Below are positions 12,271-45,633 of a stretch of DNA of 64,000 nt, piece after piece. Origin of the DNA: an uncultured Actinomycetes bacterium (GTDB lineage Bacteria > Actinomycetota > Thermoleophilia > Gaiellales > Gaiellaceae). The stretch is from NCBI GenBank assembly GCA_963793655.1, contig CAWCAV010000010.1, positions 285,455 through 349,454 on the forward strand, in the 5' to 3' direction. Position 1 is the first letter of the stretch. The number at the start of each line of letters is the position of its first letter. Below the pieces are notes generated by a model that was given only the letters and a program-made list of their open reading frames with translations, made no database searches and was not told where the DNA came from. The position numbers were made by a program, and so were the translations under genes.

Positions 12271-14159
12271 CCGAGCGCAGGGAAGGACAGCTCGTCCAGG
12301 AACCGGTCGTTGAAGTCTGGCCGGTCGGACAGCTCGACATACGACACGCTGTCCAGCATCGCGGTGGCCGCGTGGCGCTCCTGCATCGAGAGGAGCGCCA
12401 TCTTCGCTCCTTCGCCCGCAACGTTGCCGGCGGGCACGATACGCGTGCGCGGCAGGTGGGGGACGAGGCCGATGCGGATCGCGCTCGCCGGGGAGAGGAA
12501 CGACCCGAACGAGCCCGCGAGCAGCACCTGCTGGATCTCCGACTCGTCGATCCCGAGCTCGTCGACGAGCAGCCGCCAGCCGGTAGCGATGGCCGCCTTC
12601 GCGAACTGGAGCTCCCGCACGTCGCGCTGTGAGAGGAAGACAGCGTGCGCCGGATCGCGCTCCTCGCCCGTCCAGTGGAGGACGAACGCCCGCTCCTTGT
12701 CGTCGCGTGTGATCAGGCGTGCGGCGAGCGCCGGTGAGAGCTCGGCTGCGCTCTCGTCGTCGACGAAGCGTCCGCTCGCGTCGAGCAACCCGACTCGGAC
12801 GAGCTCGGCGACGGTGTCGACGAGGCCCGACCCGCATATGCCTGCGGGCTCGACGTCTCCGATGACTCCCAGCTCGAGACCCTCGGGCACGATCCGGACG
12901 ACCTCGACGGCGCCCTCCGCCGCCCGCATGCCGCACTTGATCTGGGCCGCCTCGAACGCCGGGCCCGCCGGCGCCGCGGTGCAGAGCAGCCGCTCGGACG
13001 AGCCGAGTGCGATCTCGCAGTTGGTGCCGACGTCGATGAACAGCCGCAGGCGCTTGTCACGCGTCATCCCGGTCGCGAGAAGCCCGGCGACGATGTCGCC
13101 GCCGACGTAGGCTCCGAGGGCGGGGAGGACGTTGGCGCGCGCCCGCGGGTGGAGGCGCAGCCCGAGCTCGGACGCGGGGAAGTCTGGGTAGTCGCGTGTG
13201 GCCAGGATGAAGGGCGCCACGCCGACCGGCTCGGGGTCGATGCCGAGCACGATCTGCGTCATCGTCGCGTTGCCGGCGAGCGCCACCTCATAGACCTGCT
13301 CGAGCGGGATGCCGCCTTCCTCGCAAACCTCCTCGGCCAGACCCTGCAGCGTCTCGGCGGCGAGCGCACGGAGCCGCCCGAGCGCGTCGGGGTCGAGCAT
13401 GGTGGCGGAGATGCGCGTGATCACGTCCGCGCCGAACGGCTGCTGCTTGTTGAGCGTGGAGCGGACGGCGACGGGGGTGCCCGTGCCGACGTCGAGGAGC
13501 GTCGCGACCACGGTCGTCGTGCCGAGGTCGAACGCGATCGCGTGCAGCGAGCCCGTCGTGTCGCCAGGCTCGACGTCGATCAGCAGATCGTCGACGACAA
13601 CGGCCGTCACGCGGTAGTGCGAGGAGCGCAGGACGCCGGGCAGCCTTCGCAGGACACCGGCCTCCACACGGAGCTCGAGGTCGTCGACGGCGTCGCGGAT
13701 CCGCTCGAGGTCCGTCCGCTGGTCGGACAGCGAAGGCGTCTCGAGCTCGACGTAGCGCTTCTGCAGCGCGGGATGGAGGATCACCTGACGGCCGACGCCG
13801 ACCGTCGCCGCCTTCGGCCGCGTGACGAGCGGGGGCACCTCGATCACGAGGTCGTGCTCGGCCTGGGCGCGGCAAGCGAGCCGCCAGCCGTCGGCCAGCT
13901 CGGCCTCCGAGAACGCGCGGGCGTCGAGCGGCGAGGACGGGACGGCGCCCTCGACGACCTGCACCTTGCACTTCTTGCAGGTGCCGTGCCCACCGCATGT
14001 GGAGTCGATCGCGATCCCGTTCCAGGACGCGGCGTCGAAGACCGTGACGCCCGGCGGCACCCGAACGGCCGTGCCCGAAGGCTCGAAACGGAGCGCGACG
14101 CGGGCCGGCAGGTCAGCCGTGCCCTCGGCGGTGTCCGGCGGCTCCACGATCAGGCTCAC
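12267..14159 (-). CDS. Corrinoid reductive activator (RACo/RamA-like, 2Fe-2S + ASKHA/DUF4445)
   Basis: CGGHGTCKKC...RLAC ferredoxin; DLGTTT, DVGTNCE, AGPAFE, GICGSG, AGSFG. Confidence 0.93.
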   Translation of the reverse strand: MSLIVEPPDTAEGTADLPARVALRFEPSGTAVRVPPGVTVFDAASWNGIAIDSTCGGHGTCKKCKVQVVEGAVPSSPLDARAFSEAELADGWRLACRAQAEHDLVIEVPPLVTRPKAATVGVGRQVILHPALQKRYVELETPSLSDQRTDLERIRDAVDDLELRVEAGVLRRLPGVLRSSHYRVTAVVVDDLLIDVEPGDTTGSLHAIAFDLGTTTVVATLLDVGTGTPVAVRSTLNKQQPFGADVITRISATMLDPDALGRLRALAAETLQGLAEEVCEEGGIPLEQVYEVALAGNATMTQIVLGIDPEPVGVAPFILATRDYPDFPASELGLRLHPRARANVLPALGAYVGGDIVAGLLATGMTRDKRLRLFIDVGTNCEIALGSSERLLCTAAPAGPAFEAAQIKCGMRAAEGAVEVVRIVPEGLELGVIGDVEPAGICGSGLVDTVAELVRVGLLDASGRFVDDESAAELSPALAARLITRDDKERAFVLHWTGEERDPAHAVFLSQRDVRELQFAKAAIATGWRLLVDELGIDESEIQQVLLAGSFGSFLSPASAIRIGLVPHLPRTRIVPAGNVAGEGAKMALLSMQERHAATAMLDSVSYVELSDRPDFNDRFLDELSFPALG

Positions 14160-15019
14160 GGCGCCGCAGCCGCCTGTGCCTCCCGGTGCGCGGCGATCCA
14201 GGCCATACCCCACTCGTCGCGTCCGAGCAGCAGGTCGGCGGCGCGGCAGGCGTCGACGGTCTGGGCGGTCCGGGCGTCCATGATCGCGCTCGTGAGGCCC
14301 GCGTACGAGGCGATCACGAGGAACGCGGCGTTCAGCGCGTGCCGGCCGGGCAGGCCGAACGAGGTGTTGGACGCGCCGAGCGTCATGTTCAGGCCGAACT
14401 CATCACGGATGCGGCTGATCGTCTCGAGCGTGACGACGACCGCCTGCGGGTCGGCGCCGACGGTCATCGCGAGTGGGTCGATCACGATGTCCTCCATCGG
14501 CACCTCGTACTCGCCGTGCACGATGTCGACGAGCCGGCGGCACACTTCGAGACGCTCGTCGGCCGTCTGCGGGATGCCGGTCTCGTCGTTCACGAGGCAG
14601 ATCACGGCGGCGCCGTGCTCCTTGACGAGCGGGAGCACCCGCTCGAGCCGGTCGCGCTCGCACGTGACCGAGTTGACGAGCGCCTTGCCCTCGTAGACGG
14701 CGAGCCCGGCCTCGAGCGCCTCGACGATCGAGGAGTCGATGCAGATCGGCACGTCCGCGTGGTTCTGCACGAGCATGACCGCACGGGCGAGCAGATCAGC
14801 CTCGTCGGTCAGCGGGACACCCATGTTCACGTCGAGCACGTGCGCGCCCATCGCAACCTGGTCGTCGACGTCCTTGGCGATCTCGGACAGGTCGCCTGCC
14901 CGCAGCGCCTCGGCGAACGCCTTCCGCCCGGTCGGGTTGATCCGCTCGCCGATGATGCAGAACGGCTGGTCGGCCCCGATCGTGACCTGCTTAGACCGGG
15001 AGCTGAGCACGGTATGCAT
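14156..15019 (-). CDS. Methyltetrahydrofolate:corrinoid methyltransferase (pterin-binding, AcsE/MetH folate domain-like)
   Basis: IIGERINPTG, LDVNMG, CIDSS, VNSVT, GASNTSFGLP. Confidence 0.92.
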   Translation of the reverse strand: MHTVLSSRSKQVTIGADQPFCIIGERINPTGRKAFAEALRAGDLSEIAKDVDDQVAMGAHVLDVNMGVPLTDEADLLARAVMLVQNHADVPICIDSSIVEALEAGLAVYEGKALVNSVTCERDRLERVLPLVKEHGAAVICLVNDETGIPQTADERLEVCRRLVDIVHGEYEVPMEDIVIDPLAMTVGADPQAVVVTLETISRIRDEFGLNMTLGASNTSFGLPGRHALNAAFLVIASYAGLTSAIMDARTAQTVDACRAADLLLGRDEWGMAWIAAHREAQAAAAP

Positions 15020-15933
15020 GCGCTCGCCTCTCCTCCTTGGTGGGGATGCCGAGATCGCGGCAGAGCTGCGAGACGGCACCGTCGTGACGAAAGTCGGTGA
15101 TGTGGAGCCCGCGCACGCCAGGGAGCGACAGCGCGTGCTCCGCCTGCTCGAGCGCAAGCTCGTAGGCGGCCTCGCTCTGATCGGCAGCCTGTCGGACCCG
15201 GGCGAGCGTCCCCGCGGGCACGTCGATGCCGGGGACGCTGGAATCCATGAACGACAGGGCGCGCGCGCTGCGCACGAGCACGATCGTCGGGAGCAGTGCC
15301 GCCTGCTCCGTGAAGCCACCGCCGTCGAGCGCGCGAACGAACGACTCGAGCCGGTCGGGGTGGTAACAGATCTGGAGCTGCAGGAAGCGCGCTCCCGCGG
15401 TGATCTTCTTCGCCGCGCGGCGTGCGCGGTGCTCGAGCGGCGGGGCGGCGGGGTTCTCGACCGCTCCGACGAACAGCTGTTGCGCGAGCCCGGCCGGCCG
15501 GCCGGAGAGGTAGCGGCCTTCGGAGAGCCCGGTGGCGACCCGGACGAGCTGCGGCCCGTCGAGGTCGAACACGCGTCGCGCCTCCGGCTCGTCCCCCGCG
15601 GTCACGTCGTCGCCGGTCATGCAGCAGACGTTCGCGACGCCGTGCAGCGCGGCGCCGACGATGTCGGCCTGACAGGCGATCCGGTTCTTGTCGCGGGCGA
15701 CGACCTGGAGCACCGGCTCGATGCCGAGCCGGACGCAGCGCGACCGCGACGGCGACGTTCGACGCATGCGCGTGCGCCGCGGGGTTGTCGGTTGCGTTGA
15801 CGGCGTCGGCCCACGATGCGACCTCCGCGACGCGCTCGCCGAACGCGGCGACGTCGCCGCCGTCGACCGTCGGCGCCTCAGCGGTGAGAATCGTGCTCTC
15901 GCCGTCCTCGACGAGGTCCCGCAGCCGGCTCAC
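14991..15933 (-). CDS. metF: Methylenetetrahydrofolate reductase, frameshifted
   Basis: NATDNP, RDKNRIACQ, MTGDD, KKITAGARFLQLQ. Confidence 0.88.
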
Positions 15934-16317
15934 CTGGGCTCCTCCGCGTCCGGGCGGCGCTCCCAGCCGACGGGCCGTAGCCTATCCCGGCCGGTCAGCA
16001 GGTTGACCCATGACGACGTGCCTTGCAGGCGATTGTCGACCGGCGGGCGCAGCTGTTCGAAGTGCGGACCGCCAGGAGGCGGGAAGCAGGGGCAGGGTGC
16101 GGGAGCGGTGCTCCGCCTTCACCCAGACGCAGCGCATCTCGGGCTTCACCTCGCAGTGGCCGTTCTCGCGGACGCCGCCGCAGGGCCCGTTTCGCAGCGT
16201 CTTGGGACACGTCATCGGGCACGTCATTCCCGTGTCGTGGAGCACGCACTGGCCGCACATCCGACAGCCGAAGACCGGCTTCTTGACGGCGTGCTCGACG
16301 AAGGCGACGATTCCCAT
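15930..16317 (-). CDS. MTHFR-associated Cys-rich small subunit (MetV-like), frameshifted
   Basis: GCRMCGQC, CPMTCPKTLRNGPCGG, CEV...CVW; GTGA-coupled to metF. Confidence 0.85.
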
Positions 16318-16324
16318 TGCGGTC

Positions 16325-16992
16325 TCAGGCGAGGGCCACGGGCCCGGCGCTGCTCGAGAAGCTCCTTCGCGCGCTTCGTGGCGCTCGCCGCGTCGGGCGC
16401 GTAGCCGTCGGCGCCGACCACGTCGGCGTACTCCTGGGTCACAGGCGCGCCACCGACCATGATGATCACGTCGTCGCGCAGCCCGGCCTTCTCGATCGCC
16501 TCGATGTTCACCTTGAACATCGGCATCGTCGTCGTCAGGAACGCCGAGAAGCCGACGACGTCGGGCTTGTGCTCCTGGATCGCCTCGATGAACGTCTCGG
16601 GCGCGACCTGCACGCCGATGTCGACCACGTTGAAGCCGGCGCCCTCGAGCATGATGTCGACGAGGTTCTTGCCGATGTCGTGCACGTCGCCCTTGACCGT
16701 GCCCATCAGGAACGTGCCGATCGGCTCCGACGTCGGTCTTCGCAAGCAGCGGACGCAGCAGCTCGAGCGCGCCGGACATCGCGCGACCGGCGATCAGCAT
16801 CTCCGGCACGAAGAAGTCGCCGCGCTCGAAGCGGGCTCCGACCTCTTCCAGCGCCGGGATCAGCGCCTCGAACAGCATCGTCTCGGGGTGCATTCCCGCG
16901 GCGATCCCCTGCTCCGTGAGCCCCACGACCTCGGGCTTGTTCCCGACCAGGGTGTAGTCGTAGAGACCCTGGAGGATCTCGTCGGCGTTCAT
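16325..16992 (-). CDS. Stand-alone corrinoid (B12-binding) protein, frameshifted
   Basis: Cap domain FVPEML plus GDVHDIGKNLV and GGAP B12 motifs. Confidence 0.93.
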
Positions 16993-17806
16993 GACTCCTC
17001 GTACTCCTTCCGGATGGTAGAGACGGATCAGCTCGGACAGCGCGCGAGCCTCCTCGACGACTTGTTGGGCGACATCGCCGAGCCGCTCCCGTGCTCGTGC
17101 GCACCGTCGGCGCGGAGACGGAGATCGCGGCGATCACCGAGCCCGCGAGCCCCGTACACGGGCGCAGCGGCCGAGCAGAGGCCTTCGTCGAGCTCCTCCC
17201 ACGTCGTCGCGTAGCCGTCCCGCCGAACCCGATCGAGTTCGGCGAACAGGGCTTCCAGAGAGGTGATCGTCTCGAGGACCGAGGCGAGCGAGGCGGCCGA
17301 ACGGGGGCTGGGCGGCACCGAAAGCCATGAAGACCTTGCCCATCGACGACGCGTGGATCGGGATGCGACGGCCGACCCAGTTGCCGGCTCCCGAGGGGGT
17401 GATTGCTGTCGACCTGCGCGAGGCGCGCGACGCCCGCGGGAGTCGGGATGCCGATGTTCGCCGTCTCCCCCGTTGTCGCGCCGAGCCGCTCGAGGAACGG
17501 CAGCGCAAGGGTCGCGAGATCCCCGACGGCCGAGTCCCTGCGCGCGTACTCGACGAGTACCGGGCCGGGGCGAAAGCCCCCGCCGCGCCGACGTTGCGCG
17601 AGCCCGTTCCGCTCGAGCGCGCGCAGGAGGCGAGCGGCGGTGGTCTTCGGCAGCTGGGTCTCCTCCATCAGGCCCGAAAGGCTGACCGCGTCGTCGCTCT
17701 CGACCAGGCGAACGAGGATCCGCGCGGCTCTGTCGATGGACTGGCTTCCGTCTTCGATCTTGGTCATCGGTACCGGATCATGGTACCAAACCTGCGCTTC
17801 GCTCAT
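16989..17806 (-). CDS. IclR family transcriptional regulator, frameshifted
   Basis: QSIDRAARIL HTH, GETANI, HASSMGK, GLCSAAAPV, AAISVS. Confidence 0.9.
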
Positions 17807-19377: not shown

Positions 19378-21348
19378 ATGGACGCGCCCGACCTCTTCGA
19401 CGTCGAGACCGCCGCCGACGGGCCCGGCCGGGGCGCTGCCGCTGACGGCCGACGTTCCTGCGGGACAGCCCGTCCGGCGACGTGTTCGGCCTCTCGCAGA
19501 ACGCCGGCATGGGCTGGGAGGCGTCGAAGGTCGGGCGGGACCAGTTCCTGATCCTCTCGACGCTCAGGGCGGCGTCCGCGCCGACGACGGCACGCCCGTC
19601 GCGCTCGGGTACCACACGGGCCACTGGGAGGTCGGCCTGCTCGTGCGCGAGGCAGCGCTCGAGCTCGACCGGCTCGGCGGGCTGCCCTTCGCGGCGCACG
19701 TCTCGGATCCGTGCGACGGCCGCAGCCAGGGGACGACAGGGATGTTCGACTCCCTGCCGTACCGCAACGACGCGGCGCTCGTGCTACGACGACTCGTCCG
19801 CAGCCTGCCGCGACCGCCGCGGGCGTGATCGGCGTCGGCACCTGCGACAAGGGACTGCCGGCGATGACGATGGCGCTCGCGTCGTTCCGCGATCTCGCCG
19901 GCGCCGTCGTGCCCGGCGGCGTCACGCTGCCGCCCCGCCACGGGGAGGACGCAGGCGCGGTGCAGACGCTCGGCGCGCGGTTCGCCCACGGGCTGGTCGA
20001 CGCTGCGACGAGGCAGCCGACCTCGGCTGCCGCGCCTGTGCCTCGCCCGGCGGCGGCTGCCAGTTCCTCGGAACGGCGGCGACGGCGCAGGTCGTAGCCG
20101 AGGCGCTCGGCCTCACAGTGCCGCACGCGGCGCTCGCGCCGTCGGGGCAGCCGATCTGGCTCGACGTCGCGCGGCGCACCGCCGGCGCCGTGCACGACGC
20201 AGTGGCGCGACGGGCGCACGCTCGGCGACGTGCTGACCGACGAGGCCATCGAGAACGCGATGCTCGTCCACGCCGCGTTCGGCGGCTCGACGAACCTCCT
20301 GATCCACATCCCGGCGATCGCGCACGCAGCCGGGCTGCGCCGGCCGACCGTCGACGACTGGCGGCGGGTCAACGCGTCGGTGCCGCGGCTCGTCGACGCG
20401 CTGCCGAACGGGCCGAACAACCACCCGACGGTGCGCGTCTTCCTCGCGGGCGGGGTGCCCGAGGTGATGCTGCACCTGCGCCGGCTCGGGCTGCTCCACG
20501 TGCGATGCGCGGACGGTCGACGGGCCGCACCTGGGACGAGGTGCTCGACGAGTGGGAGGCGAGCGAGCGGCGGGCAGCGGCTTCGCGCCCGGCTGCTCGA
20601 GGCGGACGGAGTCGACCCGGACGACGTCATCTGCCCGCCCGGCGCGGGCACGCGAGAAGGGGATGACGTCGACGGTGTGCTTCCCGGAGGGGAACCTCGC
20701 GCCCGGCGGCAGCGTGATCAAGAGCACCGCGATCGACCCGCAGCGCTCGACGAGGACGGCATCTACCGGCTGACCGGGCCGGCCCGCGTGTTCACGAGCG
20801 AGCGCGACGCGATCGCGGCGATCAAGGGCAGCCGCGGGTGAGCCGATCGAGCCCGGCGACGTCGATCGTCCTCGCCGGTCGCGGGCCGCTCGGCTCCGGG
20901 ATGGAGGAGACCTACCAGCTGACGTCCGCGCTCAAGTTCCTGCCCTTCGGCGGCAGGTCGCGCTCGTCACCGACGCACGATTCTCGGGCGTCTCGACCGG
21001 AGCGTGCATCGGTCACGTCAGCCCGGAGGCGCTCGAGGGAGGGCCGATCGGTCGGCTCGTCGACGGCGACCTCATCCGGGTCGTCGTCGACCGCGAGCGT
21101 CTGGTCGCGTCCGTCGACCTCGTCGGGCACGGGGACGAGGAGTGGACGGCAGAGGAGAGCGGCGGCGGTGCTCGCCGGCCGCTCCGTCCGCGACGACATC
21201 GCCGCCGGATCCGAGGCTGCCGGCCGACACCGCGCTGTGGGCGCGCCTGCAGTCGGTCAGCGGCGGTCTGTGGGGCGGCTGCGTCTACGACGTCGAGGCG
21301 ATCGAGCGTCGGCTCTCGGCCGACCCGGTGGCCGCGCAGCACGCGTAG
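19378..21348 (+). CDS. YjhG/YagF-type sugar-acid (xylonate-like) dehydratase, IlvD/Edd family, frameshifted
   Basis: [55 protein letters not shown]. Confidence 0.88.
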
Positions 21349-21490
21349 CCGCGAAGCGGGCGGGAAGGGGCCGGTCACGGCGCCCACGACGCTCACGGGT
21401 CGATCACGTCCTCTTTCAAGGTGTCTCTGCGTGCGCGCGCGGATCGTCCGTGGCGAGTGAGGCTGATCCAGACCCGGGACGCAGCCCAGG

Positions 21491-21560
21491 GGTCGACCCG
21501 TTCGAACGGAGCTCGTTCGTGTACCGACCAGGGTCGTCGGTTCGAGCCCGCCTTGCACCA
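21491..21560 (+). repeat. Dispersed hairpin + tRNA-3'-half-like element, copy 1
   Basis: Shares CGAACGGAGYTCGTTCGNGTACMGACC...GGTCGNCGGTTCGA...ACCA with 47312-47390. Confidence 0.55.
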
Positions 21561-21634
21561 TCCGTGGGTTACCGACGATCGCCGCTCTATGCTCACGTCG
21601 ATTGTGAGCCAACGTGTCGAGGTTGCACGAGCGC

Positions 21635-22559
21635 ATGCCGGACTACGAGATCGCAGTAGCGGGCGGAGGGCCAGCCGGTCTCACCGCAGCGCTCTTCGCC
21701 GCCCGCCACGGCCGGAGCACGGTCCTGCTCGATCCGCTCGGCTCGGGCGGCGCGATCCTCAACACTGAGCGAGTCGAGGACTTTCCCGGCTTCCCGGAAG
21801 GGGTGCCGGGCTTCGAGCTCGGCCCTCGGATGCAGGGGCAGGTCATCGACGCCGGCGGCGCGTTCGAGCTGAGCGAGGTGACGCGCATCGAACCGCGCGG
21901 CGGCGACTGGAGTCTCGTCACCGACGCCGGTGAGGTCGGCGCATCCGCAGTCATCGTCGCCACCGGGTCGAGGCCCCGCAAGCTCGGCGTGCCGCGCGAG
22001 GAGGCGTTCGAGGGCAGGGGGCTCAGCACGTGCGCGAGCTGCGACGGCCCGCTCTACCGGGGCAAGCGCGTCGCAGTGTGCGGCGACGGCGACTCGGCGC
22101 TCATCGAGACGCTCGAGCTCGTGCGACACGACGTGCGGGTGGTGCTCATCCACCCCGACGAGGCCCTCGCGGGCCAGGAGGCGTACAGCCGTCGCGTGCG
22201 GGAGAGCGCGCAGGTCGAGGTCAAGGCACCGGACGGTGCTCGAGGAGATCCTCGGAGACGGACAGGTCGACGGCATCCGCGTGCGCGACCTCGTGACGGG
22301 GGACTCGTCGACCCTTCCCGTTGCAGGGGTCTTCGCGAACGTCGGTCGTCTCCCGAACACCGGGATGCTCGAAGGGGTCGTTGACCCTGGACGAGCACGG
22401 GTGCATCCCCACGGACATCTGGATGCGCACCGAGCGCGAGGGCCTGTTCGCAGCCGGTGACGTCCGAGCGGACGCGCCGGGCCAGGCGATCACCGCTGCC
22501 GGCGACGGCGCGACGGCCGCCCTCGCCGCGCACCGCTACCTCGCGAATCGCGCACGTGA
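21635..22559 (+). CDS. Thioredoxin reductase-like FAD/disulfide oxidoreductase, frameshifted; end approximate
   Basis: GGGPAG, IVATGS, TCASCDG redox motif, FAAGDVR, AAGDG. Confidence 0.88.
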
Positions 22560-22570
22560 GCGCCCGACCT

Positions 22571-24236
22571 CTAGCGCCAGGCGTCGATCGAGACCGCCGC
22601 CTTCTGCCCCTTGTTCGTCCGGAACTTCGCGCGCATCGGGGAGCCCATGAAGATGCTGAAGTGCCCGTTCGTCTCGCCGCCGGCGACGACGATGTTGATC
22701 CGGTCGGGCTCGAAGACCGGGATCAGCTCGTCGGGCGGCGCGTTCCAGTAGCTCGCGAACGGCTCGACGCCCGCCTCGACCTCCTCGTGGATCAGGTTGA
22801 GCATCGACGTGGTCCCAGAAGCGCCGCTGCGGGATCCTGCGCGTTCTCGTGGATCCAGAGGGCGAGCTTCTCCTTCGTGTCGAAGCCCCTCTCGACGAAC
22901 TCGCGCGCGACGATCGGGTCGAGCACGAGCGTGCACGCCCATCCCGGGCTCGAGCCCGCAGATCATCGCCTTGAGCTTCTCCTCCCAGTACGTGCGCAGG
23001 TACTCGGCCCAGACGTTGCCCCAGATGTACGAGACGGTGACCGTGCTCTCGTCCCGGTCGTAGCCGTGCTGCACGTGGTACGGCTCCCACGGGCTCGCTT
23101 CCTCGTTCTCGGCGAACGTGATGCAGTTGTAGGAGAAGTTGCAGCCCTGCGAGCCGGCGTACGTCTCGCCCGGCACCGAGCCGCCCTGGAGGTTCTGCGA
23201 GAGCGAGCCCGAACGCGCGGCCGATCGCCGAGTTGGCGTGGTTGTACGGCCCCATCGCGCCGATGCCGCTGTTCATCCCGATCTCGTGCCGGATCGGCCC
23301 GTTGACGACGACCATGTTGCCCATCGAGGACATGCTGCTCTGGCGCCCGGTGTCGCCGCTCGAGGCGAGCGCGAGGATCACCGGGAAGTACTCCGGCGCG
23401 GCGCCCGCCATGACGGCGTTCACCGCGACCTTCTCGACGTCGAAGTGCCAGTGCTCCATGCCGATCGTCGGCCGGAGCTTGCCGACCATCTCGTCGGGCG
23501 CGTGGCTCGTCCCCGCCAGCATCCGCTCGACGCGCTCCTCGGTCGGCAGGACGATCGGCAGGAAGTCCGTGTAGCGGCGCTCCCGGAAGAGCGCGTGCAT
23601 CTCCTCCTCGCTCGCCGCCTCGACGTAGCGCGGCGTCGAGCGGTCCCAGTCCTCGCCGCGCAGCTCGTCGGTCGGGAACGGGACGCGTGAGCTGGTCGAA
23701 GACCTCGGCCATGAACGGCCGGCCGTGGACGGGGTCGTCGCCCTCGACGTACTGCCGCAGCACGGCCGGCGGCGTGTTCATCAGCGGCGTCGGGCACGAA
23801 CACCTGCCGCGCGCTCGGCATGCCCTGCGTCTTCACGCGTGTTGCGCACGAGGTGCGCGAACACGTTCAGGTGGACGCCCACGGTCGGGACGCCGTACTT
23901 CGACTCCAGATCGACGACGTGGCCGGAGACCTCCGGCGCGCAGCCCGGTCAGGTGCCGACGCCGATGATGGCCGCGTCGCCCTCGGCCTTGATCCGCTCG
24001 CACAGCTCGGGATCGGGGATGTGCTGGTTGCGCCACCGGACGACCTCCGTCCGGATCGCCGGGCCGGTGCTCCTCGAACCAGCCGTGGAGCTGCGCCATG
24101 AAGTTGTCCGAGTTCGCGAAGCCGACGTCGACGAGGAAGAGCTTCTTCCCCTCGAGCGTGTCGAGGCCGGCGCCATCCCGCGCGCGCTCACCTTCGGCGG
24201 GTATCCCTCGGGGTTCAGGACCCTGAACATGGCCAA
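22571..24236 (-). CDS. UGSC-family selenoprotein (UxxC) fused to a large conserved domain; Sec at 23949-23951, plus indel frameshifts
   Basis: [19 protein letters not shown] continues in frame; SECIS 11 nt downstream; C-terminal [23 protein letters not shown] and ENEEASPW blocks; GAGGAGG RBS before TTG. Confidence 0.82.
23922..23951 (-). promoter_or_regulatory. Bacterial SECIS element with its UGA codon
   Basis: UGA + 11 nt + GCCGG-AGGUCU-CCGGC hairpin; spacing and loop match E. coli fdhF SECIS as recalled. Confidence 0.8.
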
Positions 24237-24287
24237 CTCGCACCTCCTCGGACCGCGGTCGATGCTACTCGATCGGCGATCTCTGCC

Positions 24288-25050
24288 TCACTCGCCGGCC
24301 CTGGCTCGTCGACGCCGCCTCGCCGATCGAGACCTGCTGCTCGCCCAGGTAGCTGGCGATCAGGAGCTCGCGGTCGGCGCTGCAGCACCTTCGCGCGGTC
24401 GTGGAGGACGATCTCGCCGTGCGAGAGCACGTAGCCGCGGTCGGCGATCTCGAGCGCGAGCTGGACGTGCTGCTCGACGAGCAGCACGCCGCAGCCCGTG
24501 TCGAGCGCGTACTGGCGCACGACCGGCAGCAGGCGCCTCGACGATCACGGGGGCGAGCCCGAGCGAGAGCTCGTCGAGCAGCAGCAGGCGCGGCCGGCGG
24601 GCGAGCCCGCGCGCGACGGCGAGCATCTGCTGCTCGCCGCCCGAGAGGAGCCCGACGCGCCGCGTGCGCAGCTCTCCGAGCTTCGGGAAGTACTCGTACG
24701 CGCGCTCCTCGTCGAGGCGCTCGCCGCGGTAGCCGAGGCGGAAGTGCTCGGCGACGGTGAGCCCGAAGAAGAGCCCGCGGCCCTCGGGGACGTGCACGAT
24801 CCCGCGGCGCGCCCGCTGCGTCGGGCGAGACGCGCGCGATGTCGCGCGCCGGCGAAGGCGATGCGCCCGCTCATCGGACGGACGAGCCCCGAGATCACCC
24901 TCAGCGTCGTCGTCTTGCCGGCCCCGTTCGGCGCCGAGCAGGGCGACCACCTCGCCCGGCGCCGACGGTCAGGTCGAGCGTCGCGGATCGACCGCCGCGC
25001 CGGTCGTAGCCGGCGGTCAGGCCCTCGATGCTCAGCACCGCGTCGCTCAT
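24288..25050 (-). CDS. Branched-chain-type ABC transporter ATP-binding protein (LivF-like), frameshifted
   Basis: [36 protein letters not shown]. Confidence 0.88.
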
Positions 25051-27892
25051 CGACGCTGTCGACCACCGGCTCCGAGCTCGGCCGCCGCGCTGCCCGAGAT
25101 AGGCCTCGATCACCCGCGGGTCGCGGCGCACGTCCTCGGGCGTGCCCGTGCGCGATCACCTTGCCCGAACTCGAGCACGACCACGTAGTCGCAGATCCCG
25201 AGCACGAGGCCCATGTCGTGGTCGACCAGCAGCATCGCCGTGCCGGCGTCGACCACTCGCGCGCAGCTGGCGCGCCGAGCTCCTCGCTCTCGTGCGTGTC
25301 GAGCCCCGCCGCCGGCTCGTCGAGGCAGAGGAGCCGCGGCTCGGCCGCGAGCGCGCGCGCGACCCCGACCAGCTTGCGCTGGCCCTGCGTGAGCTCGTCG
25401 GGCATCGCGTCCGCCGTCGCCTCGAGGCCGAGCAGCTCGAGGCCGCGTCGCGCCGCCGTCGTGCTCGCGACCGGCCGCGAGAGCACCTCGCTTGACCGTC
25501 GCCCACACCGACGGGCGGTAGGCGGCGACCGCGAGGTTCTCGCCGCACGGTCAGGTCGTCGAACAGCTCGATCGACTGCCACGTCCGCGCGAGCCCGCGC
25601 CGCGCGCGCTCGTGCGCGCGCCAGCCCGTCGAGCAGCTCGCCCGTCGAGCTCGACGCTGCCCGCCGTACGGCACGAAGCCCGATGATCGCGTCGATGAAG
25701 GTCGTCTTGCCGGCGCCGTTCGGCCCGATCAGCCCGACGAGCTGACCCTCCGGCGACCGTCGAGGTCGACGTCGTCGAGCGCCCGCACGCCGCCGAAGCG
25801 CGACCGAGATTCCGGTTCGCGGCGAGGACGGCGGCGCCTGGCTCGCTGCGGCTGCGGCCGGGTGCGCGAGGGATGCCACGGTCGCGCACGGTCGGCGTCG
25901 GCGTGCGCCGCCCCGGCGCGGCCGCCTCGGCGGCGAGCCGCCGCTGCTTCTGCTGCTTCTTCTTGTAGCCCGTGCCCGGCGATGCCCTCCGGGTTGACGA
26001 GCAGGGTGACGATCAGCGCGAAGCCGCCGACGAGCAGCGCCCAGTTCCCGGACAGGCCCGAACCACTCGTCGAAGGCATGCGGGAAGAGGCCCTCGGTCG
26101 CGCCGACGCCCGCGAGGACGGCCCCGGAGACCATCGTGATGCCCGCCGAAGTAGGCGAAGGCGATCAACCCGAGCGCCACCAGGGCCCCGAAGCGGCTGT
26201 AGCTGACCGAGCCCGAAGTTGTAGGCGTAGAGCGCCCCGGCCATCCCGGCGATGAACGCGGCGATCCCGAAGCCGGCGAGCTTCGTGTTGCGCACGTTGA
26301 TCCCGGCCGCCGCCGCGGCGCGCTCGTTGGAGCGCACGGCGAGCATCCGCTGTCCCAGGCTCGCGCGCCGCACGTTGGCGACGAGCAGGCCGAGGGCCAG
26401 CGTCGCCGCGAGGACGAGGAAGCCGAAGACCGGGCTCGGGAGCTTGTCGTCCAGGCCCCTGAACGAGGCGTCGGGAGCCGAGGTCGATGCCCGCCGAGCT
26501 TCGGCTGCTGGACCGGCGAGCCCGTCCCCCGCCGCCCCACCGCGCGTTGACGAAGCCGAACTGCTCGATCGCGACGGCGGCCGCGAGCGTCACGACCGCC
26601 AGGCTGACGCCGCGGACGCGCAGGGCCGAGACGCGCGACGAGCGAGCCCGACGACCGTCGCCGTGACGCCGCGCCGATGAGCGAGCGAGATCGGGAACTC
26701 GCCCAGATGCCGCCGACGTCCGTCGTCAGGTGCGACATCGTGAAGCCCGGCGACGCCGGCGAGCGCGAGCTGCACGACCGAGATCTGGCCGACGAAGCCG
26801 ATGATGACGACGAGCGAGAGGCAGATGACGATCGCCGAGCAGCGAGATGATCAGCGCCTGCCGGAAGTCGTACGGGAAGCACGATCAGCGCAGACGACGC
26901 CGACGACCGCGCGATCGCCGTCGGCCGGAGCAGCCGCTCGGGCCGGGGCACGGCCGGGCAGTCGCTGCTCGACGCAGCTCGCCGCGGCCGGGCAGGCTCG
27001 CCCCGCGCAGGAAGAGCGCCAGGACGATGACGAGGAAGACGAAGAGCTCGGGCAGCCCCCGAAGCGGCGCCCCGCCCTTGTCGGTCGGGAACCAGCTCTG
27101 CGTCGACCAGTAGATCGAGGAGCGCCTGGATCACGCCGATCGCGAGCCCGGCGAAGCACGCGATGAAGAACGACGTGAAGCCGGCGAGCAGCGCGGCGCC
27201 GAGCGCCGGCACGACCTGGAACGCCAGCGTCTGCGCGTCGAGCGCGATCAGCGGCGCGACCAGCACGCCGAGCCCACCGGCGACGACGCGATGCAAGGAC
27301 GGTGTTCGCGACCGCCAGGCGGCTCGGCGAGAGGCCGGCGAGCATGGCCGAGACCTCGTTCTCCGACGCCGCCCGCGTCGACAGCCCGAAGGGCGTCCAG
27401 CGGAAGAGCGCGGCCAGCGCCGCTGCCACGACGATCACGATCCCCGCGAGGCAGGAAGCGGTCGACCGGGACGACGCGGCCGAAGATCATGACGGTGTCG
27501 GTCGGAAGGACCGACGGCGCCGACTTCAGGCTGTTGCCGAAGATCGACGATCATCCCCGCCTCGCAGCACCAGCAGGAGACCGAGCGACGCAGCCAGCTT
27601 CGCGAGCGGCGCCGTGTTCCGGAGCGGGCGGAAGATGGTCAGCTCGATCAGGACGCCGAACGCGGCCATGCAGGCCAGCGTCAGGACGAACGCCGGGGCG
27701 GTCGAGAGCTGGAAGCCGAAGTAGTCCGGTCCTGAGCGCCCAGAAGATGTAGGCGGCGAGCATCGCGATCGCGCCCGTCGCGACGTTGATGACCCCGGAG
27801 CCGCGGTAGATCAGGACGACGCCGAGGGCGATGCTCGCGATGAGCGCGCCGGCGCCGAGGCCCAGCGCCGCGAAGAGCAGGACGTCCCGCAT
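25047..27892 (-). CDS. Fused double permease + ATPase of a branched-chain-type ABC transporter, heavily frameshifted
   Basis: IYRGSGVINVA (LivH-like), GQISVVQLA and AVRSNERAAAAAG (LivM-like), GPNGAGKTT and LDEPAAG (LivG-like). Confidence 0.78.
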
Positions 27893-27963
27893 CCGATCTC
27901 AGTCTCTCGACGAGCGCGGTGGGCCCGGCTCGTCGGGGGCCCACCGACCGGTCTCGTCGAGCC

Positions 27964-29250
27964 CTACTTCGCCCCTGGCGGCTTCAGCCAGCCCGTGGCC
28001 ACCTTCCACTTGCCCTGACCCACGTAGTTGTAGAACTGGGTCTGGTTGCCGCAGGCGGCCGGCTCCCCGGGGACGACCTTGCCGCAGGCGATCTGCGGCG
28101 GCCCCAGCACGAGGGGGCCGCGAAACGCCTTGAACCCCGCGGTGATCGTCGCCGGGCTGATCTTGCGCGTACGGGCATCGCGTTCATGATCTTCACGGTC
28201 GCGAGGAGCTGCTCCCAGGCGCCCTCCGCGAAGACCCAGAGCAGGTCGTTCACGGTCGCCCCGTACTGGATGCCCTTCTTCAGGTACAGCTTCGACTGCG
28301 GCCCCGGCAGGTTCACCAGCGTCTGGGCGATCCCGTACGTCCACTTCGGGAATGTCGCCGCCTGCGTACGCAGCCCGCGGCAGGAACGTGCAGATCGGCG
28401 TCGAGAGCACCGGCTTCGAGTAGTTGATCTGGTCGATCGCCCTCGCGAACGGGACGCACGTCGTGAAGCCGAGCGCCGCGATGATCATGTCGGCCGAGCT
28501 CGCCTGGGTCGCCGCCCCGAGCAGGTCGGTCGCGAGCGGCGGGACGCCGATCATCGTGACCTTGACCCCGACCTGCTCCATGCGCCTTCTTGAGCGCCTG
28601 CGCCGCCGTGTCGGCGCCCGGGTCGGTCGGGTAGACGATCGGCGGTGGTCTTCACCTTGGGCAGGTACTGCTTCGTGTAGGTGCCGAAGGGGCCGAGCAC
28701 GCTCGTCTGGCTGCCGTTCAGGAAGAACGTGTTCTTCGCCGTCGGGTCGGCCGCGTTCGCGGTGACGACGCCGACGATCGGCTTCGTGCCCTTCACGGTC
28801 GCGTAGATCGACTGGTTCCCGACGGTCACGAACCCGTAGAGGATCGCCATCGTGCCCTTGTCGTTGACCATCTGCTGGCCGCAGCGCACGCCTTCCTCCT
28901 CTGCCTGCGCCCAGAAGCACTCGTTGAGCTTGACCGGGTGGCCGTGGACGCCGCCGAGCTCGGCGTTCACCATCTTCACCCCGGCGCGAATGACGTTCGT
29001 CGCCTGCGGGAAGTTGAAGTTGGGCGGGCCGCCCTGGCCGTTGATGAAGCCGATGGTGACGGGCGCCAGCTTCGGGTTCGCCTTGCCCTTGCCGCCGACA
29101 TACGACCTGGTAATTCAGGACCTGCGGCGGCGAGACGGCGCTCGTGGCCGCGACGGCCGAGACGGTCGCCGATGAGCACCGTCACGACTGCGAGCAACGG
29201 CCATCAGGCGTCGGCGTCGGCGATTCTCGACGATGGTTGCGCGGACGCAT
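27964..29250 (-). CDS. ABC transporter substrate-binding protein (Leu/Ile/Val fold), frameshifted
   Basis: PVTIGFIN, VNAELGGVHGHPVKLNEC; AGGAGG RBS; upstream of permease. Confidence 0.8.
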
Positions 29251-29476
29251 ACGTACTTCCTCCTTCTGCCGATCTACGGCATGCCGTCGAAGTGCCCGTG
29301 CGTCCGCGATCGCGCGAACGACCTCAGATGGGTCGCGGCCTCCTCGAATGGCTCGCGGCGTCGCTCACTCTCGGCTCACTCCCGCTCTCTGGACGTCACG
29401 ATCGAGCGAGATTACTCCGCTCGTAACGAAAGTGTCAACAAAAATGTCGATGACAGGCTCGCCGACCTGCCAGACG

Positions 29477-30382
29477 TCATGTCGAGCGCTGGTCGAGCAC
29501 CGTGCGGAAGATCGGGTTGGAGAGCAGGAAGCGGATGTCGTCCGCCCGCTCGTCGTCGAGCGGCTCGTCCGGAAACGAGGCGAGCATCGCGCGGAAGCGC
29601 TCGTCGGCGCCCTCGCGGAACTCCCGGTGGGTGAAGATGTACAGGTCGTCGCGGCGGATGCCTCGCGAGCACGCGCTCTCCGCATTCCCGCGGGTCCATC
29701 CAGAGCGGCGAGTTGGGGCGCTCCTCGAGCTCCTGCTCGAGCTCCGTGTAGCCGGAGTCGGCGTACCGCTCGGGCCGCGTCCTGCCGCCCTCGCGGATGT
29801 TCGTCTGCACCGGCCCGGGACAGAACGCGGAGACGCCGATCCCCTCTCCGGCGATCTCGCTCGCGGAGCGCCTCGGAGAGCCCGATCACCGCGGCCTTGG
29901 CCGTGATGTAGATCGCGGCGCCGGGGATCGGCAGGACGCCGGCCATCGACGAGGTGTTGACGATGTGCCCGCCCTCGCCGTGGTCGAGCATGCCGTGGCA
30001 GGAACGTCTGGATCCCGTTGACGACGCCGCCGAGCAGCACACCCAGGCCCCAGTCCCAGTCGTCGTAGCGCGCCAGCGTGACCGGCCCGAGGATGCCCAT
30101 GCCGGCGTTGTTGCAGAGCACGTGCACGTTGCCGAAGACGCGCTCCGCCTCGTCGGCCGCGCGCGCGAAGCCCTCGCGGTCGGTGACATCGAGCTCGATC
30201 GCGTGCACGTTCTGCCGCCGCCCGCTCTCGGCCAAGCGCTCCAGAGCGGTCTCGAGGTGGTCGGGACGGAGGTCGGCGATCACGACGTTCATCCCCGCTG
30301 CGACGAACGCCTCGCTCATACCGAGCCCGATCCCGCTCGCACCGCCGGTGACGAACGCGGTCTTGCCGGCGACCTCTTCCAT
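29477..30382 (-). CDS. SDR oxidoreductase (LigL-like), frameshifted
   Basis: TGGASGIG, NNAG, NTSS, YITAK. Confidence 0.88.
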   Translation of the reverse strand: MEEVAGKTAFVTGGASGIGLGMSEAFVAAGMNVVIADLRPDHLETALERLAESGRRQNVHAIELDVTDREGFARAADEAERVFGNVHVLCNNAGMGILGPVTLARYDDWDWGLGVLLGGVVNGIQTFLPRHARPRRGRAHRQHLVDGRRPADPRRRDLHHGQGRGDRALRGAPRARSPERGSASPRSVPGRCRRTSARAAGRGPSGTPTPATRSSSRSSRSAPTRRSGWTRGNAESACSRGIRRDDLYIFTHREFREGADERFRAMLASFPDEPLDDERADDIRFLLSNPIFRTVLDQRST

Positions 30383-30387
30383 GCGGC

Positions 30388-31279
30388 CTAGCGGTCGCCC
30401 GGCCAGGAGGCGAGGGCGCGCGCCTTCCCTGCGCGCCGGCTGTCCTCGACCGCCAACCGGTCCGCGGGCACCGGCTCGTCGGGGAATGCGGCGATGATCT
30501 CGTCGAAGATCCCGCGCAGCTCGTCTCGATGGTCGGGGTGGGTGAAGACGTAGAAGTCGTTCCGCTTGATCGCGCGCAGGATCTTCGCGCCGATCTCGTC
30601 CGGGTCCATCCCGGCCTCGTGCAGACCGGGGAGGATGCGCATGAACTCCTCGTCGGCCGGGGTCACGTCGGTCGAGAGCTCCGCAGGCCGGATCAGGTCG
30701 CTCTCGTAGATCTTGCTCCTGACGAGGCCGGGGCAGACCATCGAGACGCCGATCCCGTGCGGTAGCAGGCTCCAGCGCAGCGCGTCGGACAGCCCGTGCA
30801 CTGCGAACTTCGCCGTCGTGTAGATCCCGGCGCCCGGACCGGCGACGAGCGCGGCCATCGACGCCGTGTTGACGACGTGCCCGCCCTCGCCGTGCGCCTT
30901 GATCCTGGGCACGAAGGTGACGACCCCGTTGACCACCCCGCCGAGGTTGACGCCGAGCACCCAGTCCCAGTCCTGGTAGGTCGCCTCGGCGATGTCGTTG
31001 AAGAGGTTGATGCCCGCGTTGTTGCAGAGGACGTGCACGTTCCCGAGCGATGCGCTCTGTCTCGTCTGCGGCGCGCGCGAAGGCCTCCCGGTCGGTGACG
31101 TCCAGCCGGATCGCATGGACGTCACCCCCGAGCTCGGCCGTCGCCTCCTCGAGATGGTCGGCCCGCATGTCGGCGATCGCCACCTTCATCCCGGCGCCGA
31201 CGAAGGCCTTGGCCATGCCGAGCCCGACTCCGCTCCCACCTCCGGTGATGAAGGCGACTCTGCCTTCGACGTCCCGCAT
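30388..31279 (-). CDS. SDR oxidoreductase (LigD/LigO-like), one frameshift
   Basis: TGGGSGVG, NNAG, NTAS, YTTAK. Confidence 0.88.
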
Positions 31280-31360
31280 CGGCTTCGAGACCTTATAGGC
31301 TCGGTCGCGCACAGCCCAGCATCGGGAGGAGGCGCCGATGGCGACGAGGAGGCGACGGCG

Positions 31361-32500
31361 GTGGTGAGAGCGGACGTCGTGGGAAGCCTGCTGCGGCCCG
31401 AGTACCTCCGGGAGGCGAGGGCGGCCGCGCTGGCCGGAACGATCGAAGCCGATGAGCTGCGTGCAGCGGAGGACCGCGCGGTGCTCGAGGCGATCGCACT
31501 CCAGGAGGGTGCAGGGATCGAGGCGATCACGGACGGCGAGTACCGGCGGCACGGGTGGATCGCGTTGATCCCGATCATCGACGACCCGCTCTTCAGGGCG
31601 CCCGTGAGCGGCTTCGAGTTCCTCGACGCCGACTCCGGCTGGCGCAACCTCTGGAAGACGGGCTCGGGCGAGCCCGCCGACACCTCCGGGCTGCCTCCCG
31701 AGGAGCCGTTCGTCACTCGGCGGCTCGAGGTCGACCGCGACATCGTCACGGACGAGTTCGCGTTCCTGAAGGCGAACGCCCACGCGCGCGCGAAGTACAC
31801 GATCCCGGCGCCGAGCTGGCATCGCATCTACTGGCATCCCGAGCACTCGTCCGACGCGTATCCGACGTCGGACGACTTCATCGCCGACGTCACCCGCATC
31901 CTCCGCGAGCACGTCGTCGACCGGCTGGTCGCGCTCGGCTGCGACTACATCCAGATCGACGCGCCCAACTACGCCCAGTGGCACATCGACCCGGTGAACC
32001 GAGCGGCGTTCGAGGAGCACGGGCACGACATGGCGCACGAGCTCGTCGCGGATGCCGAGTTCGACAGCATGGTCTTCGAGGGCCTCACCGGCGTGACGCG
32101 GGCGATGCACATGTGCCGCGGCAACGCGCCGGGCGGCATGTGGGCTGCGACCGGGGGCTACGAGGCGATCTCGAAGGAGGTCTTCCCGCGCCTCCGGAAC
32201 CTCGACCGGCTCCTGCTCGAGTACGACTCGGACCGCGCCGGCACCTTCGAGCCGCTTGCTGACGTGCTCCCGACTCATCAGGTCGTGCTCGGGCTCGTGA
32301 CGACGAAGGACGGCACGCCCGAGGATCCGAAGGACCTCGTCGCCCGTGTAGAGGAGGCGACCCGGTACGTGCCGCTCGAGCGGTTGGCGGTCAGCCCGCA
32401 GTGCGGGTTCGCGTCCGGTGTGATCGGCGCGATGACCGCCGAGCAGCAGGAGGCGAAGCTGCGGCTCATCGGGGACGTCGCCCGGCAGGTCTGGGGGTAG
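31361..32500 (+). CDS. Cobalamin-independent methionine synthase II family (MetE-like Zn-thiol alkyltransferase core)
   Basis: ADVVGSLLRP, ITDGEYRR, IQIDAP, HMCRGN...LEYD...PQCGFAS. Confidence 0.9.
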   Translation: MVRADVVGSLLRPEYLREARAAALAGTIEADELRAAEDRAVLEAIALQEGAGIEAITDGEYRRHGWIALIPIIDDPLFRAPVSGFEFLDADSGWRNLWKTGSGEPADTSGLPPEEPFVTRRLEVDRDIVTDEFAFLKANAHARAKYTIPAPSWHRIYWHPEHSSDAYPTSDDFIADVTRILREHVVDRLVALGCDYIQIDAPNYAQWHIDPVNRAAFEEHGHDMAHELVADAEFDSMVFEGLTGVTRAMHMCRGNAPGGMWAATGGYEAISKEVFPRLRNLDRLLLEYDSDRAGTFEPLADVLPTHQVVLGLVTTKDGTPEDPKDLVARVEEATRYVPLERLAVSPQCGFASGVIGAMTAEQQEAKLRLIGDVARQVWG

Positions 32501-32502
32501 CG

Positions 32503-33688
32503 TCAGCCGTCCCGGTGCCGCTCGACGACGAACGCCTCGTCGTTGAACCAGAGCGCGCCGTGCTCGTGCAGGACGTCCTGCGTGACCCCGAGGTAGCGCC
32601 CCTCGCGGAGCGCCTCCTCGAGGCGCTCGTCCTCGATCTGGTTCACGTAGATGACGGCGTTCCAGGCGGCGAAGAGCGTTGAGGTGCCGATCCGGTCTCC
32701 GATCTCGGAGGGCAGGGTGTGCATCCGGTAGCGGAACACCGCCTCGGCGTCGGTGGGATCGGCGAGGTCGTAGTCACCCGGCCTCGTCGCCGAGCGCCGC
32801 CCGCAGCGTCTCGATCAGCGCGTGGCGGTCGACGGTGAACGGCATCTCGCCCGGCCAGAGCCGCTCGACGATCTCGGCGGCCGGATCGCGGCCCCATGAC
32901 TGAACCGTCAGGAGGCGGCCGCCGGGCGCCAGGCTCCTGGTCAGCGGCGCCAGGATCTTCTCGACCTTGAAGGCAGCGCCCATGCGCGCGCGCCACGGTT
33001 GCGACGCGAGCACGAAGTCGTACGACGTGTCGCGCTGCCGGACCCGGCCGATGACGTCGTCGAGCAGGAACTCGTGGTCGCGGCGGTAGAGCACGAGGAC
33101 CGACGGCTGCTGCGGCACCGGGTTGCCGGTCTCCGGATTCGGGCTCGTCCCCCAGCCCGAAGCGAGGATGGGCCCGAGCGCCTCGATCTGCTCGCCGAGC
33201 TCGTGCGCGGATGCGCCTTCGAGCGGCACCTCCCGCCAGCTGAGAATCGCGGCCCTCTCCGGATCGCTCGGCTGGAGCGCGGGCGCGTCGGCGTAGGACA
33301 GGTTCGTGACGACGAGCACCGTGTGGGGGTGCTCGACGAAGCGGTCCGGCATCTTCTCGAGCCCGAGGCGGACGTCCTCGAGGCTGATCTCCTTCGCCAC
33401 CGCGAGCACGGGCACGGTCGGAAAGCGGTGGTGCACCGTCCGGAGCACGCGCGAGAGCACGGTCCCGTCGCCCATGCCCGCGTCGAAGAGGCGAAGCGCC
33501 GGAGGTGTCGGCCGCAGCTCCGTCAGCTCGTCGGCGCAGCGGGCCGCGATGACGGCCTTCTCGTTGCACGTGGTGACGAAGGCCAGGTACTTCTGGCGGT
33601 TGTCGTAGAAGCGAAACGGGGTCGACTCGGCCGCACGGGTCGGCTGCGCGGGCTTCGTCGGGCGCGATTGGTCGCTCGGCTCACCCAA
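32503..33688 (-). CDS. Class I SAM-dependent methyltransferase-like protein, frameshift near 32750
   Basis: FDAGMGDG motif I; YDFVLASQ, LAPGGRLL. Confidence 0.7.
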
Positions 33689-45620: not shown

Positions 45621-45633
45621 GGTCTGCGTCCGC

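Follow-up and report, generated by a model that had tools for sequence, protein, structure and literature searches.

A UGSC-family selenoprotein with a GrdB/PrdB-related selenocysteine domain in a conserved actinobacterial gene cassette, and its possible role in beta-aryl-ether cleavage

The window, i.e. the whole stretch of 64,000 nucleotides that was analysed, derives from an uncultured member of the Gaiellaceae (assembly GCA_963793655.1, contig CAWCAV010000010.1, positions 285,455 to 349,454 of the forward strand). Its minus strand encodes a selenoprotein in which a UGSC-family domain is fused to a large domain previously designated 'Unknown_1'. The gene is flanked by genes for a thioredoxin-reductase-like (TrxR-like) flavoprotein, the components of an ABC importer, two C-alpha-dehydrogenase-like SDRs and a MetE-like protein. 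The coordinates of these genes, and of the features within the selenoprotein gene, are provided in Table 1.

Table 1. Features of the selenoprotein gene and of the surrounding cassette, in window positions.
Feature	Position	Strand	Remarks
Thioredoxin-reductase-like flavoprotein, CASCD motif	21635..22560 (end approximate)	+	transcribed towards the selenoprotein gene; assembled copy frameshifted
UGSC-Unknown_1 fusion selenoprotein gene	22571..24236	-	TTG start, TAG stop
'Unknown_1' domain, ~aa 195-552	22574..23650 (approximate)	-	no Pfam family; confidently modelled
UGSC domain, ~aa 27-190	23663..24158 (approximate)	-	predicted alpha/beta flavodoxin-like fold; GrdB/PrdB Sec-domain homologue
SECIS hairpin	23922..23937	-	stem of 6 bp; GGUC as loop, +18 to +21 downstream of the UGA
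Cys99 codon	23940..23942	-	putative resolving cysteine of UxxC
In-frame UGA	23949..23951	-	putative Sec96 of U-P-G-C; TGA in relatives, TGC in Cys forms
Indels in the assembled selenoprotein gene	near 24167, 24063, 23837, 23794, 23682, 23204, 22936, 22839, 22806		
Ribosome-binding site GAGGAGG	24243..24249	-	6 nt before the TTG start
LivF-like ABC ATPase	24290..25050	-	
Fused branched-chain-type permease + ATPase	25058..27892	-	935 aa in the intact locus L022
Solute-binding protein, PF13458	27964..29250	-	
SDR2, C-alpha-dehydrogenase-like	29477..30382	-	best solved match 4yae; Arg aligned to LigL Arg222
SDR1, C-alpha-dehydrogenase-like	30388..31279	-	best solved matches 3ioy and 4ya6
MetE-like protein (PF01717)	31349..32500	+	divergent from the SDRs

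The intact orthologue L019 encodes 552 residues with one UGA, and the start codon at the same position in relatives is either ATG or TTG. The assembled gene is not one open frame, as it carries nine single-base indels (one deletion and eight insertions), and the same nine were obtained against 16 of 16 intact relatives by global alignment. Correction yields a length of 1666 - 7 = 1659 nt, which corresponds to 552 aa plus the stop codon. A reading made earlier from the sequence alone had proposed a single fusion of about 550 aa, a size that agrees with L019 but, because of these indels, is right only after correction. The cassette neighbours carry between 1 and 18 frameshifting indels per kb in the assembly (1.1 at the lowest), nearly all of them +1, and are 84–92% identical to an intact relative. 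The indels in the selenoprotein gene are probably assembly errors, for which low-depth long-read consensus is a likely source. Eight of the nine are absent from contigs of related strains (among the rows listed, the best run sharing 0.32 of words), a comparison that by its nature does not separate error from pseudogene in this particular strain. RNA-library contigs of relatives cover it as well, which does not prove expression; the UGA is not among the differences listed for them, a small part of the total. The nearest named relatives of the gene are from Gaiellaceae/Gaiellales-type Actinomycetota.

On the minus strand, the frame around the UGA reads GVGT-U-PGC, and the position 23949 at which the list of open reading frames had been seen to stop is this in-frame codon (23951–23949). 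The sequence-only reading had suspected a hidden selenoprotein and had proposed aligning homologues for Cys or Sec at this column and searching the genome for the Sec machinery, and both analyses bore it out. TGA occupies the column in 39 of 39 related loci from the genome collection (26 close ones and 13 acidobacterial ones with 37–40% identity), and full-length Cys-form homologues, which include P0106, P0117, P0119, P0123 and P0125, have TGC there. In the source genome (G000, 57% complete), selA and selB adjoin the tRNA-Sec gene (selC) on contig C11 and selD is also present, with the three protein families scoring over their cut-offs; SelA likewise did so in five of the five related genomes tested. 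The genome encodes a second selenoprotein, the alpha subunit of a formate dehydrogenase, whose gene also contains a UGA in frame (L044; G000:C11:337423-339291). Together with the conserved hairpin described below, these data identify the gene as that of a real selenoprotein of a known family, and its UGA is almost certainly read as selenocysteine, as judged from comparative sequence data. Close database relatives are mostly called at 430–444 aa because the called starts lie after the UGA, and since gene callers cut at this codon the enzyme generally appears as a pair of hypothetical proteins.

The hairpin (GCCGGA-GGTC-TCCGGC) has its first base 11 nt after the UGA and spans 23937–23922, as the sequence-only reading had it; the form given there, GCCGG-AGGUCU-CCGGC, differs only in that the closing A–U pair is assigned to the loop. 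Its loop of 4 nt beginning with GG, its stem of 6 bp, its distance of 17 nt from the UGA and its energy of -10.9 kcal/mol all lie within the bacterial SECIS model as given in PMC13188914 (loop of 3–9 nt, stem of 4–16 bp, G in the first two loop positions, 16–37 nt from the UGA and MFE <= -7.5 kcal/mol), the values having been compared one by one. Only 13 of the 76,666 TGA triplets in the genome are followed, in the tested register, by a GGTC loop on a stem of at least 6 bp, so the hairpin is beyond chance. Its 18 nt are identical in all 26 close loci, and codons +4 to +9 form the longest fully invariant codon run among the 16 intact relatives, in which a single codon is kept in only 10% of the other invariant four- or sixfold columns. 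In 12 distinct sequences with GGTC at the same place, 72 of 72 stem cells pair and double changes occur at three of the six pairs, the complete pairing being conditional on the choice of sequences with GGTC at +18; slid registers of the same set pair in 14–50 of 72 cells. The SECIS census comprised 37 distinct sequences, two of which (the second match in L041 and the match in L042) are probably spurious pattern matches. In the Cys-form loci, the stem is weakened to three or four of six pairs in six of six cases.

The earlier description of the element as fdhF-like held for spacing and loop, since the enterobacterial fdhF SECIS, taken from the sequence printed in PMC4489274, shares the 11 nt between UGA and upper stem as well as the AGGUCU apex. 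It did not hold for the remainder, as the present hairpin lacks the bulged U and its GGUC starts at +18 instead of +19, i.e. one base nearer the UGA. The SECIS of the genome's own formate dehydrogenase has a GGUCU loop on an unbulged upper stem. An Rfam scan of window positions 21000-33500 returned 0 matches, and a promoter and terminator scan gave signals at chance level.

Assignment to the UGSC family, as a domain with a UxxC motif, had been part of the sequence-only reading and was confirmed by PF24696 (gathering cut-off 25 bits), which scored 34 bits with the gene as assembled and 66 bits with the intact orthologue. The protein shares the fused domain with other members, and its close database relatives are named 'UGSC family (seleno)protein'. 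It differs in its motif, which is UPGC, in its defined cassette context, and in falling far under the cut-off of the UGSC equivalog NF041046 (125 bits, against 25.6 bits as assembled and 49 bits for the intact orthologue). The family was first named in PMC1976440, and the metagenome surveys in PMC1976440 and PMC2398784 place it among the most abundant selenoproteins of ocean and freshwater. Where they treat UGSC, PMC1976440, PMC9312934 and PMC13188914 give it as uncharacterised, in accordance with the earlier statement that it has no established function. The fusion of the Sec domain to a large conserved domain, likewise recognised from the sequence, was published in 2008 as UGSC fused to 'Unknown_1' (PMC2398784, Fig. 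S1A), so this type of gene was already known. The published Unknown_1 block matches residues ~270-321 of the present protein by eye, without a program score. The conserved Cys column highlighted in PMC2398784, which was taken to be the only all-Cys column of that block, appears to correspond here to Ala278; of 106 rows, 67 have Ala and 34 have Cys at this position. The family comprises 3903 representatives at E up to 0.001, and 36 large-domain matches were found in a single acidobacterial genome (G588, the genome of L042), which also holds two Lig-like SDRs, located elsewhere. A query of the ESM Atlas with a Cys-form homologue retrieved only UGSC or unnamed clusters. In G057, the UGSC fusion is tandemly duplicated (L010 and L147), both copies having the UGA and the same hairpin. 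At L067, L068 and L070, which are from other genomes of the class, the large domain apparently carries a redoxin-like domain (CPTS or CPTC) in place of the UGSC domain.

AlphaFold2 models had a pLDDT of 95.6 for the whole protein and 95.1 for the large domain. The Sec domain was modelled as five alternating beta-alpha units, with receiver and flavodoxin-like proteins as the top structural matches (8s7v_H: Z 10.7, rmsd 4.2, 136 aligned residues). Thioredoxin was absent among the best 50 matches listed for the whole model, in contrast with the 'likely Trx-like fold' given in PMC2398784. For the large domain, neither VIA-align (best Z 3.4 with 7xky_A, a class I fumarate hydratase; rmsd 5.8, 170 aligned) nor Foldseek (best E 1.4e-3) produced a usable match, and a profile search of PDB sequences yielded nothing under E 0.12. 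The lack of a match among solved structures does not prove a new fold. A putative conserved pocket of this domain comprises D223, the S300-S303 loop, R339, Y368, E375, W382 and H386.

The origin of the Sec domain was addressed with hhalign, in which its profile (39 rows) aligned with 26 GrdB-like and PrdB-like proteins, fetched with PF07355, at 96.5% with a pairwise E of 9e-10 over 95 columns. The alignment places U on U and also matches the downstream elements E-x-G-x-P-T and R-x-x-x-x-P-x-P. With all cysteines masked, the value was 94.5%; the two GrdB/PrdB subsets taken separately gave 93.2% and 94.5%; and none of 30 column shuffles exceeded 0.8%. When searched together with the 46,274 ORFs of the genome, the GrdB/PrdB rows came immediately after the fragments of the gene itself and outranked nearly all of these ORFs. 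The reverse search, with a GrdB profile against UGSC proteins, was weak (best E 3e-4; P0271 0.27), and PF07355 itself had 0 matches in G000 and none reported among the 106 family members. On the basis of these profile comparisons, the UGSC Sec domain is homologous to that of GrdB/PrdB. This ancestry, tested with controls, is added here; papers found to name both UGSC and GrdB draw no link between the two in their passages on UGSC. The GrdB profile shows no relationship to the large domain (0.2%), and the scanned cassette genes included none recognisable as of grdA/C/D/E or prdA type. GrdB-type chemistry is described in PMC10838667 as selenolate attack on a polarised carbon. It is quite probable that the present protein performs a GrdB-like reductive cleavage of some alpha-substituted ketone, a formulation that takes in the other-substrate and thioether alternatives discussed below.

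The cassette is kept among the 26 close loci, where the SDR pair is found in 24, the TrxR-like gene in 25, the MetE-like gene in 24 and the solute-binding protein in 23; gaps coincide with short contigs, and in G057 the remainder lies on another contig. That many soil actinobacteria retain the importer, the reductase and the two types of dehydrogenase as one set is the second new element. The stop of the LivF-like ATPase lies within ~52 nt of the selenoprotein start in 19 relatives, and the ABC genes immediately precede the selenoprotein gene in 22 of the 26 close loci. The earlier proposal that the gene is the last of an ABC importer operon therefore stands for these 22 loci; in three others the ABC genes are on the opposite strand, beyond the TrxR-like gene, and in one the contig ends. 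Because these four loci retain SDR1-SDR2-UGSC-TrxR on one strand, the two SDRs and the TrxR-like gene, which the sequence-only reading had not named, are the more telling partners. The TrxR-like gene belongs to two subtypes and is co-oriented with the selenoprotein gene in 7 loci but convergent with it in 18; the association has thus persisted through both rearrangement and replacement. In a quick tree of 58 rows, TrxR-like genes also flank the sister Cys-form clade and two further branches. A record labelled Verrucomicrobiota (L007) bears the cassette with ~81% protein identity to the actinobacterial copies, which may reflect misbinning or transfer. At L188:10019-17069, a UGA-containing UGSC fusion gene is directly followed by SelD-like, TrxR-like, selA and selB genes.

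The two SDRs were compared with solved structures using the intact L022 orthologues as queries. They scored 201–310 bits against 3ioy and three structures annotated as 'C alpha-dehydrogenase', among which we take 4ya6 to be LigO and 4y98 to be LigD, compared with at most 162 bits against other solved SDRs. The numbering of 4yae fits LigL, and the SDR2 arginine that aligns with LigL Arg222 is also present in the window copy; this residue is reported as essential in LigL (PMC4858972). The neighbouring SDRs are consequently classed as C-alpha-dehydrogenase-like, with GGE oxidation as their predicted activity. Co-occurrence was assessed in 200 genomes of the class, for each of which 11 SDR candidates were scored: 17 have the Sec fusion (leaving out six with weaker or different architectures only), 14 a Lig-like SDR and 13 both, these genomes being kin and not independent. 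Within family f6, the Sec fusion is present in 11 of the 12 genomes with the SDR, and in two the genes are adjacent. Among 27 metagenome loci retrieved with a UGSC query alone, seven have Lig-like SDRs within ~400 nt, and at several of these seven a pair of UGSC paralogues is accompanied by two or three SDRs. The flanking SDRs tested from L194 and L212 (one metagenomic, one from f6) matched 4y98 best, with 316 and 366 bits; these pairs involve a different SDR subtype and a different starred UGSC branch (~40% identity). Across the tree, a Lig-like SDR is nearby in only 15 of 58 rows (29 have none and 14 lie on short contigs), and it is absent from four of five acidobacterial UGSC carriers.

Glutathione synthetase (gshB) scored over its cut-off in none of the five genomes tested, one of which was the incomplete G000. 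GST-family genes do occur in these genomes, and two of them (from G057 and G123) matched generic GSTs and no beta-etherase in the PDB; no GST Pfam match was obtained in the 106 UGSC family members. Since the cassette holds two lignin-type dehydrogenases, an importer and a TrxR-like gene, the selenoenzyme may split lignin-type ethers. The specific proposal, which we advance as tentative, is that it could reductively cleave the beta-aryl-ether bond next to a ketone in lignin-type fragments without glutathione. Slightly more tentative is the joint claim that abundant uncultured soil actinobacteria might possess a complete glutathione-free system for the lignin beta-O-4 linkage, composed of importer, stereo-complementary dehydrogenase pair, GrdB-related etherase and lyase, and dedicated TrxR-like recycler, with the 360-residue domain as a candidate new fold.

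According to this proposal, SelB and tRNA-Sec, which are encoded in the genome, would read the UGA under guidance of the hairpin, and the importer would take up an aromatic dimer. SDR1 and SDR2, given their similarity to the Lig enzymes, would generate the alpha-ketone by oxidation of the alpha-R and alpha-S alcohols, as in the LigO/LigD and LigL/LigN reactions. The Sec96 selenolate would then attack the carbon beside the carbonyl and expel the aryloxide, a step modelled through domain homology on the GrdB-type attack on activated alpha-carbons, with the large domain as putative substrate binder. Subsequently, Cys99 would attack selenium and the product would leave via an enolate, so that a Se–S bond remained, by analogy with the glutathione lyase step for which NaGST-Nu is described as attacking a thioether through an enolate (PMC5892560). 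Finally, the TrxR-like neighbour, linked at the gene level, is predicted to interact with the selenoprotein and would re-reduce the motif with NAD(P)H. In net terms, one protein would stand in place of LigE/F plus LigG.

The reference for comparison is the sphingomonad beta-etherase pathway (LigD/L/N/O, LigE/F/P, and LigG or NaGST-Nu; as outlined in PMC4858972 and PMC5892560). The cassette resembles it in its two C-alpha-dehydrogenase-like SDRs, one with the LigL arginine, and the net reductive cleavage proposed here would be the same. The cassette differs in that it contains no GST and in that the Sec enzyme and TrxR-like protein would replace the GSTs and glutathione; LigE and LigF are GST-family proteins, so that any likeness with UGSC lies in proposed function and not in membership. 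PMC4858972 assigns separate etherases to the two beta-stereoisomers, whereas only a single UGSC gene lies in the cassette (two in G057), and one enzyme would have to handle both isomers. Further points against the etherase reading are that the MetE-like gene is left without a role, that the family is far wider than its SDR link, that other contexts occur (a Neorhizobium UGSC copy follows malonate genes, and the sister Cys-form clade has another SDR type), that GST-family genes are present, that the Unknown_1 Cys column appears to be Ala here, and that neither the cassette nor the rest of the window yielded a recognisable further gene of lignin catabolism.

The same GrdB-like chemistry and SDR-UGSC-TrxR logic might instead serve another imported substrate, in which oxidation of an alcohol would prepare an adjacent C–O, C–N or C–S bond for reductive cleavage; we consider this somewhat unlikely. 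In its favour are the size and expansion of the family, the want of an informative solved relative for the importer, and the non-Lig SDRs that adjoin other members: in the sister Cys-form clade, a different SDR (~30% identity) lies between TrxR and UGSC. Against this, both cassette SDRs clearly group with C-alpha-dehydrogenases, SDR2 keeps the GGE-contacting arginine, and the Lig-type pairing recurs on another branch. A general thiol or selenol oxidoreductase, which would act on disulfides, sulfoxides or peroxides to maintain neighbouring proteins and have no small-molecule lyase role, is the default view in the UGSC sections of PMC2398784 and PMC1976440 and accords with the UxxC motif, the TrxR-like partner and the redoxin domains fused to the large domain elsewhere; it is unlikely, as the homology is to GrdB/PrdB and the gene, located in a catabolic import cassette, encodes a 360-aa conserved domain.

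Proteins of the MetE family perform zinc-thiolate alkyl transfer, and in a two-step route the MetE-like zinc protein would put a small thiol on the keto-ether, with the selenoenzyme as a thioether lyase that attacks sulfur in the manner of LigG or NaGST-Nu. The distribution of the close MetE-like orthologues, found in the class sample only in cassette genomes, and the documented enolate chemistry of NaGST-Nu speak for this route. It is nonetheless quite unlikely, because family f6 pairs UGSC with LigD-like SDRs yet has a MetE-like match in 0 of 36 genomes at E 1e-30. That the gene is a pseudogene here, or that the UGA either terminates translation or reflects a sequencing error, is highly improbable despite the nine indels and the fact that the nearest reads are from relatives, since all neighbours are similarly frameshifted, the TGA is common to every related locus and the hairpin is intact here but weakened in the Cys forms.

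A search of non-subscription papers found none that joins beta-aryl-ether or etherase chemistry to selenoproteins. The GrdB homology and the cassette turn an 'unknown redox protein' into a question for one assay. If the etherase reading is true, bacteria without glutathione would break lignin's main bond by selenium chemistry, with consequences for carbon turnover in soil and the prospect of a biocatalyst that recycles its cofactor; otherwise, the protein simply adds one more ordinary member to a known family.

Elsewhere in the window, positions 11385-17719 hold a corrinoid-dependent methyltransferase cluster (DUF1638, a RACo (ASKHA) activator, a pterin-binding methyltransferase, MTHFR, a B12-binding protein and an IclR regulator), which presumably resembles methyl-ether or methylamine demethylation systems. 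A link between this cluster (11.4–17 kb) and the selenoprotein was dropped, as only one of 39 loci shares any part of it within flanks of 8 kb. ARAGORN called a candidate tRNA with a CTA anticodon (tRNA-Pyl) at G000:C4:1015697-1015770. The window further contains a frameshifted YjhG/YagF-like xylonate dehydratase gene (19400-20840), a dynamin-like gene adjoining a second GTPase (36940-39239), and a series of adjacent genes for a circularly permuted ATP-grasp, an alpha-E protein and three transglutaminase-like proteins (41710-47030).
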